63,948 nt of DNA, filler included, from Chrysochromulina tobinii (GCA_001275005.1; 5 parts of 5 records of this genome joined end to end with filler, not necessarily neighbours in it); one strand, 5' to 3'; counted from the whole stretch's first letter, positions 6,001 to 9,000 are shown. Numbers and translations: made by a program. Notes: generated from the letters alone by a model not told the origin.

Positions 6001-9000
6001 AATTGCGACCATCACGCATAACGGCCACAAGAGCTTGACGCCTCTTATCTACGGGTCGGCAGGCAATCTCGTCGCTACCGTCTTTGACGATGGCAAGCGC
6101 CGTGCCATCTTTGATGGCGCCTTTACCCGTCTTTACCATTCTTGGGATGCCGCGGGCTCCGCGCGCTATGTGAAGAACCTTGCCGCCTGGCTTGACCCAC
6201 GTCCAAGTCGCTCATTGTGGCAGGCTTTGAGGACGATGAATTTATGGGATTCAGGTGCGTCGGAGCCCTCAAGATCACCCCTCCTTGGCCGAAACTGATG
6301 CCTGTTGGCTTGTCTGGCAGGCGCACTGGAGCTATTGAGCGAGAAGAATCTTGACTCGTTAAAGGGCCTGGGCGAGGTGTACGCCGTCAGCTTCAAGCGC
6401 ACCTTTCCCAAGGGTCAGGTCGACCCCGCGTGGACCGAGGCGAAGCCCTTCGTGCAGCTGATTGCGGCAGCACGCGAACCGATCACGGTGGCAATGGCGG
6501 CGGCGCTCCTCGGATGGGACGATGGGCAGCAGGAGCGCGTGCTTGAGACGACGGCGCTCCTCTTTCCGGTGCGCGATGACAAGGTTCATGTCTTTCACAA
6601 GACCATCGTCGACTGGCTGACGGGCGAGATCACCGAAGGCAGCTCGATCAGAGAGCCATCGGCGGAGTTCAAGGTGCAGCGCAACGACGGGCACGCCATG
6701 CTCGCCGAGGGGTTCATCGCGTCGCGCACCGCGACACCACCCGAAGGCCGTGCCCTGGACGAATGGGCAACGTACTATTGGCTGCAATATGGCATTTCAC
6801 ACCTCTGTCGTGCCAATGGCCAGGGTGCGAAAGCTGCCTTCACTGCCCAAGCTGCCCACTATGCGATCGACCTTGCACTACTCCGTGAACGCGTTGATAG
6901 AGGCCTTCTCTCAAGCGTGTATGAGGACTACCTCGAGCTGCAAGGTGTGGGTGTGGACCTGACAGACGTGACCGAGATGCTCCACTTTGTGGGCAAGTAC
7001 ATGGACGTGCTGCAGCGGGACAAGGGCGCGGCAGTGATGCAGCTCGCCCTACAGCAGCCAGATGCAAGTGCGGTGTTTTGTGCAGGAAGGCAACTATTGT
7101 CAATGCAGCCGGCACGTGCACTCATGTGGCGTAACAAATCTCAAGAGAAGGACGCGTGCATCGGCACACTGCCGCACAAGGAGGCCGTCAGCTCTGTGGC
7201 GGTCGGCGCCACACGCATCGTCAGCGGCTCAGGCAACTCCATCTTCGTGTACGACGCCGAGAGCCAGGAGCTGATCAAGGAGCTCCGGGGCACAAGTAGG
7301 GTTATGAGCGTCACCATCTGGGACGGTGGCAAGGATGGTGGAAGGGACACTAACCAGTCCAAGTCGCTCATCGTGGCAGGCTTTCAGAGTCTGGGATTCA
7401 AGTCTGGGATTCAAGACGGGACGATCCAAGTCTGGGATTCAAGTGAGCCACGAGCTCAAAATTGCCCCTCGGCCAAAATTGATGCCTGTTTGCTTGTCTC
7501 GCAGGCACGCTGGAGCTGATGAGCAAGAGGACAAACGCCCACAGCGATTGGATCAGGTCGGTGGCGTTTTCCCTGGACGGGACCAAGATTGTATCCGGAT
7601 CGGACGACAAGACGATCAAAGTCTGGGATGCAGTCCATTTCCGTCCACATGGTGAATCTGAGTGGGAGACATTCGAAAAGCAAGCGCTTGCCCTGGAACC
7701 CAAGATGATCAAAGTCTTGGATTCGGGTGCGCCACGAGCTCAAAATCGCCCCTCCTTGGCCGAAACTGATGCCTGTTGGCTTGCCCAGCAGGTACGCTGG
7801 GGCTGTTGAGCGAAAAGACGAACGCCCACAGCAACTACATCAGGTCGGTTGCGTTCTCCCCGGACGGGACCAAAATTGTGTCGGGATCGGACGACAAGAC
7901 GATCAAAGTCTGGGATTCGGGTGCGCGGCGAGCTCAAAATCGCCCCTCCTTGGCCCAAACTAACGCTTGTTGGCTTGTCTGGCAGGCAAGCTGGAGATGC
8001 TGAGTGAGAAGACGAATGCACACAGCAACTGGGTCAGGTCGGTGGTGTTTTCCCCGGACGGGACCAAGATCGTGTCTGGATCGGACGACCAGACGATCAA
8101 AGTCTGGGATTCTGGTGCGCTGCGAGCTCAAAATCGCCCCTCACTGGCCAAACCTGACGCCTGATGGCTTGCCTGTGGCAGGCAAACTGGAGCTGATAAG
8201 CGAGAAGACGATCGCCCACAGCGACTACATCAGGTCGGTGGCGTTCTCCCCGGACGGGACCAAGATCGTGTCCGGATCGGACGACCAGACGATCAAAGTC
8301 TGGAATTTGGGTGTGCTCTGTGCCCTCAAAATCGCCCCTCCTTGGCCAAAACTGATGCCTGCTGGCTTGTCTGGCAGGCAAACTGGAGCTGCTGAGCGAG
8401 AAGACAAACGCCCACAGTGACTGGATCATGTCGGTGGCGTTCTCCCCGGACGGGACCAAGATCGTGTCCGGATCGGACAACAAGAAAATCAAAGTCTGGG
8501 ATTCAAGTGCGCTTTTGCCCTCAAATCGCCCCTCTTTGGCCAAAACTGATGCCTGTTGGCTTGTCTGGCAGGCAAACTGGAGCTGCTGAGCAAGAAGACA
8601 AGCGCCCACAGCGCCTGGGTCAGGTCGGTGGCGTTTTCCCCGGACGGGACCAAGATCGTGTCCGGATCGGACGACCTGACGATCAAAGTCTGGGATTCAA
8701 GTGCGCTTTTGCCCTCAAATCGCCCCTCCTTGGCCAAACCTGACGCCTGATGGCTTGCCTGTGGCAGGCAAACTGGAGCTGATAAGCGAGAAGACAAATG
8801 CCCACAGCGAATGGATCACATCGGTGGCGTTTTCCCCAGACGGGACCAAGATCGTCTCTGGATCGGACGACAACACGATCAAAGTCTGGGATGCAGATTC
8901 GTTCAACCTGCTCGAAACGCGTCCAGGCGAGGCCATGGCCTTCAGCGAAGAGGCGGAGGGTGTGGTGCGTGATGGTGAGACAATTCGCATGAAGGACGGG

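Follow-up and report, generated by a model that had tools for sequence, protein, structure and literature searches.

The gene at 3014-9111 of the window, the whole 63,948-nt stretch of Chrysochromulina tobinii DNA analysed here (five records of GCA_001275005.1 joined with filler), encodes a predicted NLR-like NACHT-WD40 protein whose WD40 repeats belong to a pool of exon-plus-intron units of about 194 nt. This pool is spread over at least 28 genes. The units probably move by crossover or gene conversion, and selection probably acts on five codons of the putative binding face. We put the probability of this reading as a whole at roughly 0.7.

The window gene and its predicted product

The spliced frame (3014-9111, plus strand; Table 1) has 1857 codons and a single stop at its end, and its product combines NACHT with WD40. 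Pfam found NACHT/NPHP3_N, APAF1_C and WD40 in the window protein, and the WD40 repeats of the array are 81-91% identical. Judged from its sequence, the product is an NLR-like STAND/NACHT protein with helical and winged-helix domains followed by a putative C-terminal repeat sensor. Architecture and selection pattern together suggest that it serves as an immune sensor. Walker A and Walker B are intact in the window NACHT, according to motif conservation in 30 homologs. The NTPase is preceded by about 30 residues, and an N-terminal effector domain is absent in this copy, whose candidate effector is internal and which may be truncated at the 5' end or may have an unseen upstream exon. Likeness to the paralogs begins at about 2990 (window 2939-3013). 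Five other NACHT paralogs have a simple layout with 3, 7, 8, 9 and 10 array introns. Homologs were found in C. tobinii and Prymnesium parvum, and more distant ones in Triparma and a pelagophyte.

Table 1. Features of the window gene, in positions of the window
Feature	Position	Strand	Remarks
Exon 1	3014..6254	+	start codon 3014 assumed; paralogs about 300 residues longer N-terminally
NACHT-type nucleotide-binding domain	3107..3760	+	Pfam NPHP3_N, E 1e-27; NACHT, E 2e-6
RelA/SpoT (small alarmone synthetase)-like domain	3776..4505	+	limits approximate; Foldseek
Helical, winged-helix and APAF1_C-like domains, first copy	4510..5461	+	Pfam, model, Foldseek
Foreign domain of about 246 aa	5462..6200	+	Atlas matches 0.91-0.97
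Remnant WD end	6201..6254	+	directly 5' of stray intron
Putative stray copy of array intron	6255..6320	+	followed by first 27 nt of a WD exon
Exon 2	6321..7442	+	copy of 4704-5461 (92% identical), then divergent WD40 repeats
Array intron 1, 62 nt	7443..7504	+	removed in RNA contig
WD40 exon, 222 nt	7505..7726	+	one repeat plus 31 additional residues
Array intron 2, 65 nt	7727..7791	+	GT-AG, phase 1
WD40 exon, 129 nt	7792..7920	+	Pfam, spliced frame
Array intron 3, 65 nt	7921..7985	+	GT-AG, phase 1
WD40 exon, 129 nt	7986..8114	+	spliced frame
Array intron 4, 67 nt	8115..8181	+	3' part as in intron 8701
WD40 exon, 129 nt	8182..8310	+	spliced frame
Array intron 5, 67 nt	8311..8377	+	weak RNA joint, 28-nt side
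WD40 exon, 129 nt	8378..8506	+	spliced frame
Array intron 6, 65 nt	8507..8571	+	5' part as in intron 8701
WD40 exon, 129 nt	8572..8700	+	spliced frame
Array intron 7, 67 nt	8701..8767	+	mosaic of introns 6 and 4
Last exon	8768..9111	+	seventh conserved WD40 repeat, divergent C-terminal segment, stop

The segment 4704-5461 is duplicated at 6369-7132, and the foreign domain sits between the two copies. The junction is marked by the stray intron 6255-6320 and by scraps of WD40 exon. Among the contigs of four RNA runs, none covered this intron. The first 450 nt or so of the copies are almost identical and the remainder is more diverged. At the junction, a short shared sequence links the start of a WD40 exon to the helical region.

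The model of residues 1-816 had a pLDDT of 87. In Foldseek, its best structural match was APAF-1, and it also matched small alarmone synthetases (E 2e-4 to 8e-4). Pfam gave no RelA_SpoT match on the window's own 3776-4505 segment and a match in homolog P0020 only (E 6e-5, under the cut-off). The Atlas match to a RelA_SpoT cluster scored 0.94, and 34% of the cluster's members are so annotated. D398, Y442, E462 and Q464 do not vary among the 30 sequences compared. We take these four to be the conserved acidic and aromatic motif residues that have a role in synthetases, and thus candidate catalytic residues. Taken together, the Foldseek, homolog Pfam, Atlas and motif results, with moderate scores, point to a RelA/SpoT-like domain at 3776-4505. 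It is placed between the nucleotide-binding domain and the helical domains, and this internal placement is shared by the Prymnesium, Triparma and pelagophyte homologs.

The foreign domain at 5462-6200 probably has a class I glutamine-amidotransferase-like fold. Its Atlas matches carry GIFT, ThuA and DUF4350 family names on a minority of members, and Pfam found nothing in this segment. It is transcribed, as a 652-nt RNA contig covers it, and among the loci examined it is confined to the window gene. The nearest Atlas clusters are unnamed and come from rotifer and bacterial records, and the segment resembles an integrated domain.

The preliminary description of the window had reported eight homologous introns of 62-67 nt, all in phase 1, and five exons of exactly 129 nt. 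Both observations hold. The introns (6255-6320, 7443-7504, 7727-7791, 7921-7985, 8115-8181, 8311-8377, 8507-8571 and 8701-8767) all begin with GT and end with AG and are 71-92% identical in pairs, and the five exons are 7792-7920, 7986-8114, 8182-8310, 8378-8506 and 8572-8700. The eight had been placed within 7443..8893; seven lie there, and the one at 6255 lies outside. Each exon had also been equated with one WD40 blade. A WD40 sequence repeat consists of strand d of one blade and strands a to c of the next, so each exon encodes one sequence repeat and not one structural blade. A degenerate intron pattern found seven of the eight introns and no other site in the window, with 0 matches in 100 shuffles. 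Keeping any single intron leads to a stop after 14-36 codons.

Retention of the introns in transcripts had been named as an observation that would count against the array. One RNA contig joins 7442 to 7505 over 196 and 82 matching nt with zero mismatches, and a DNA contig runs unbroken across 7247-7586. Intron 7443-7504 is thus present in DNA and removed in RNA. A weaker RNA joint removes 8311-8377, and 0 of 490 junctions of other genes account for it; RNA joints called at 92% likeness are mostly derived from paralogs. Splicing is probably constitutive, with some intron retention.

Probable exchange of units within genes and from gene to gene

A search for the array intron beyond the window, suggested in the preliminary description, did reveal paralogous arrays. 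The intron pattern, applied to 43 of the 64 parts of a metagenome collection, gave 130 stretches, which make up 126 loci. Paralog counts rest on these 126 loci, in which a few introns have no called acceptor. Viral contigs held neither intron matches nor related loci. Among 251 distinct internal exons, 225 are 129 nt long and 247 are stop-free multiples of three, and the 279 distinct introns measure 58-83 nt with length classes modulo three of 89/65/125 (three spliced contigs are left out of these length counts). For 305 intron copies the context is readable, and every one lies at the WD40 boundary; a strict test shows this for 287 and inspection for the other 18.

The unit occurs in three types of gene, which are NACHT genes, NACHT-less seven-repeat WD40 genes and a U-box-dynamin-ARM gene. 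The majority of arrays are NACHT-less; a methionine stands just 5' of their first repeat, and a conserved tail of 48 aa follows the last one. Six introns, and hence seven repeats, were counted in 14 of 17 such genes. The tail is present in 530 database clusters, and examples are L018:4311-4454 and L026:10752-10895, among many more. A possible likeness of this tail to F-box and SOCS-box sequences found no support in searches: Pfam gave no match, the best PDB E value was 0.08, and a distant-homolog search among 1.84 billion representatives returned only 17 family-like matches. One array (L006:6423-8807) is fused behind a U-box, a dynamin-like GTPase and ARM repeats. The same cassette array is found in a NACHT gene at L052:2776-6639 that is more distant and differs in its N-terminal region. 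At L015:5300-8053, 3' of a nine-intron NACHT gene, there are two opposite-strand cassette units and a second intron-plus-terminal exon. Damaged units were also seen: intron 2 of the L054 array has lost its acceptor and a spliced contig reads through it in frame, the acceptor of the last intron of L037/L084 has no AG in one haplotype, and an exon of L094 is 128 nt long, one base short.

Units were compared in 28 genes (6 NACHT, 1 dynamin and 21 without visible NACHT, 3 of these with a flank too short to classify) from assemblies that are linked through identical loci and are probably one strain. For 152 canonical units, the mean intron distance was 0.153-0.158 within genes and 0.160-0.174 between genes. 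Between-gene distances are thus close to within-gene ones, also for pairs of NACHT and NACHT-less genes. The nearest unit lay in the same gene for 21 of the 152, which is more than the 3% expected, yet a minority. There were 14 exact inter-gene tracts of at least 70 nt, and seven of them (192-232 nt) each span a whole unit. The long shared tracts end in conserved exon ends. One unit is common to L007 (NACHT) and the NACHT-less L056, L071 and L066, in which it occupies positions 5, 4, 3 and 1, and the arrays of L007 and L071 are reproduced in other assemblies. L053 corresponds to L026 with exactly one 193-nt unit missing, and the crossover lies within a 26-nt tract at the 3' end of an intron; this deletion is seen in a single short-read assembly, and the shared 26 nt could be a misjoin. 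The orthologous pairs L075/L047 and L048/L030 share their flanks and have units replaced. A tract of 15 changes across the last intron and 13 codons sets L037 and L084 apart from L071, L118 and L041. Variants known from one short-read assembly each may be misjoins.

Exchange had first been suggested by intron 8701-8767, described as a mosaic whose 5' half matches intron 8507 and whose 3' half matches intron 8115. This is borne out. On the 5' side, the first 28 nt of the intron and 19 nt of upstream exon equal the 8507 unit in an exact tract of 47 nt. On the 3' side, the last 37 nt and 28 nt of downstream exon equal the 8115 unit in an exact tract of 65 nt. Significance was reached by the 3' tract (0 of 5000 permutations) but not, once corrected, by the 5' tract on its own (pair p 0.033, global p 0.17). 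These sequence comparisons support the exchange of exon-intron units among genes by recombination.

The call for a comparison of arrays between strains did not bring out variation in the window array, which is identical in three assemblies (the window, L022 and L109), probably of one strain. A 16.4-kb part of the window recurs in L022 with 3 differences. Most arrays are identical across linked assemblies of the probable same strain, and the arrays L043/L002 and L029/L068 are nearly unchanged in other samples. The stability of the arrays across assemblies and samples thus speaks against fast or somatic shuffling.

Variable codons and competing explanations

Codons 14, 15, 17, 33 and 35 of the exon each show 13-19 residues, and 192 combinations of residues at these five codons occur in 225 exons. 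Replacement diversity (pN) is 0.566 at the five codons and 0.060 elsewhere, compared with a silent diversity (pS) of 0.265 elsewhere (95% CI 0.20-0.34) and 0.35 at the five codons; as pairwise counts on recombining repeats, these values are descriptive. In near-identical allele pairs, 8 replacement changes were found in 555 nt of variable codons, a rate about 4-5 times that elsewhere and not clearly above the silent rate. It is likely, from these sequence patterns, that selection diversifies the five codons. Codons 15, 17, 33 and 35 are spaced as codons 7, 9, 25 and 27 of Podospora, in two pairs 18 codons apart that flank conserved sites. The available part of PMC1805685 maps these selected Podospora codons to the top of the propeller. 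By analogy, the five variable codons would lie on the binding face of the propeller. The suggestion that recombination could diversify receptor specificity thus gains from the whole units shared between genes, the allele short of one unit and the five hypervariable codons.

Alternative splicing had been offered as a second source of diversity, and as the main diversifier, in the manner of the brown-algal ROCO LRR exons, it appears improbable. The exons are symmetric, the accessible text of PMC11378527 describes alternatively spliced LRR exons in brown algae, paralog contigs show intron retention, and RNA joints on the window include exon skips and one contig that joins 8700 back to 8572. The top skip, 7920 to 8378, has sides of only 19-22 nt and a depth of 26-47, against 5-9 for contigs specific to this gene, and over 23 and 40 nt it agrees with an ordinary junction of a paralog. 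The joint of 8700 to 8572 is expected from the contig graph, since the two flanking spliced junctions share 33 nt; it could also come from a small back-spliced circle. Two spliced paralog contigs keep the genomic exon order: L057 lacks four array introns of L054 with 0 mismatches, and L097 lacks three array introns of L094. Both presumably derive from RNA because most introns are missing, and the introns that they retain were favoured by the intron-based search pattern. No credible exon skip was found in the short RNA contigs, which rare skipping could escape, and no spliced multi-repeat product for a test of exon order was found among database proteins. Exactly seven repeats in 14 of 17 NACHT-less genes also speak against variable splicing. 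We consider it likely that many different recognition surfaces are generated by DNA recombination and not by alternative splicing. A neutral account is also unlikely. Here, homologous introns and shared units would be a by-product of recent duplication, and the variable residues would be relaxed surface positions with no immune role. Recent tandem duplication copies the intron too, the intron distance of 0.16 is of the same order as the silent exon distance of 0.27, and the arrays are stable across assemblies. Against this, replacement divergence at the five codons exceeds silent divergence elsewhere by a factor of two and intron divergence by a factor of three, which is more than relaxation alone gives. 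Identical units also stand at different positions in different gene types, and 247 in-register exons are stop-free.

Two further explanations are very improbable. The introns could be Introner transposons inserted independently, and Introners are reported from a Chrysochromulina sp., with a cited example of 70 nt (10.1101/2022.06.06.494994). The distinct copies sit at the same WD40 position (287 of 305 strictly, 18 by inspection), and no copy lies in an unrelated gene even though the search pattern was free of WD40 context. The similarity continues into the exons, which is the criterion by which the same paper excludes Introners. A single ancestral intron of Introner origin is possible. The array and shared units could instead be assembly artefacts, or the window gene a pseudogene, as the assemblies are all apparently short-read, the repeats are 81-91% identical, and the gene holds an internal duplication and a foreign domain. 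The recurrence of the 16.4 kb in L022 and the identical array in L109 argue against this, as do DNA contigs that run through the foreign domain and across the stray intron with its junction. In addition, the gene has an open frame, to which RNA contigs correspond exactly. Recombination of units under selection remains our preferred reading.

Likeness to known systems and proposed meaning

The preliminary description had compared the array with fungal HET-E, and the comparison is strengthened by NACHT with WD40, by unit exchange across loci and by four hypervariable codons in HET-E spacing. The Podospora anserina NWD/HNWD family (het-d, het-e, het-r) likewise combines NACHT with highly conserved WD40 repeats, exchanges units within and between loci and varies in repeat number, as far as the accessible parts of PMC1805685, PMC2873952 and PMC12222747 go. 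In contrast, the haptophyte gene has no HET domain (no HET match in exon 1 or in paralog P0002) and carries a RelA/SpoT-like domain inside the NACHT module. Its repeats are separate exons, each with its own homologous intron; the Podospora arrays are not known to have introns, a word that occurs once in PMC1805685 and is absent from PMC12222747. The haptophyte unit pool extends to NACHT-less genes, and the haptophyte family is known from sequence alone. The resemblance may be convergent.

The comparison with brown-algal immune genes stands for the layout of one repeat per exon and is unsupported for diversity by alternative splicing. In the Ectocarpus ROCO-LRR and NB-ARC-TPR genes, which are candidate immune receptors, each frame-preserving exon likewise holds one repeat, and both shuffling of exons and diversifying selection occur (PMC3341825 and PMC11378527). 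They differ from the haptophyte family in several ways. The haptophyte repeat is a WD40 repeat of a closed propeller and the module is NACHT, instead of ROC-COR or NB-ARC with LRR or TPR. The haptophyte introns are about 65 nt long and are homologous parts of the unit, alternative splicing of repeat exons is unsupported, and the host is a unicellular haptophyte. Spare exons of the Ectocarpus type (PMC3341825, accessible text) cannot fit, because the haptophyte introns of 58-83 nt are too short; inverted units were found only downstream of paralog L015 and none within introns. Human repeat proteins commonly have exons that encode one repeat each (PMC3995336), so this layout alone is ordinary. 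Fungal RelA_SpoT-NACHT-WD40 NLRs hold the same three domain types in one protein, with RelA_SpoT at the N-terminus and not, as in the haptophyte, between the nucleotide-binding and helical domains (PMC4986451, seen in part). APAF-1 is also a STAND ATPase with WD40 propellers, and an APAF1_C helical domain precedes the WD40 region; the haptophyte protein differs in having no CARD and in repeats that are near-identical and hypervariable, not fixed. The haptophyte family joins HET-E-type concerted evolution to the exon-per-repeat layout of brown algae.

We propose that the arrays would be built by tandem duplication of exon plus intron. Homologous exchange, by unequal crossover and gene conversion, would homogenise the scaffold and the intron and would move whole units, while selection would probably diversify the binding face. 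Because all introns are in phase 1 and the exons are multiples of three, in-register crossover should keep the frame. The intron may absorb small indels and may add to the length of homologous sequence that separates the two clusters of variable codons. The long tracts end in conserved exon ends and give no sign that exchange depends on the intron. The propeller might bind foreign or modified-self proteins of a virus or parasite, with the NACHT module as switch and the embedded RelA/SpoT-like domain as output. Haptophytes are abundant algae under heavy attack by giant viruses. A wider and more speculative reading, which we hold only tentatively, is a genome-wide library of WD40 cassettes with the intron as a frame-safe crossover site. 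It would serve several effector chassis (NACHT with the alarmone-synthetase-like domain, the seven-repeat propeller with its conserved adaptor tail, and U-box-dynamin-ARM) as an anticipatory repertoire against viruses and parasites.

A literature search, with most subscription papers outside it, returned no account of haptophyte NACHT-WD40 receptors or of this family. The family is a concrete candidate repertoire with a readable mechanism of diversification. The 65-nt intron of each repeat is a near-neutral tag by which the effects of recombination and selection can be told apart for every single unit, a distinction that is difficult to make where arrays are uninterrupted. The variable positions shared with fungal HET-E point to non-self recognition by the WD40 top face, arrived at convergently or of ancient origin. 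Sensor units common to unrelated effector architectures and a RelA/SpoT-like domain inside NACHT are each directly testable.

Some minor features of the window were also recorded. A perfect 48-nt tandem duplication at 3637-3732, in NACHT, and a 13-nt slippage run at 7383-7444, ahead of the array, both keep the frame. The neighbours are an OB-fold plus methyltransferase frame at 19-2802 (plus strand) and a Clp/Hsp100-type ATPase frame at 10245-13007 (minus strand). Further tandem arrays lie at 27459-29915, 43165-43868 and 60075-63947, with units of 125, 94 and 163 nt, and long low-complexity repeats of the proline/serine type occur in these stretches.
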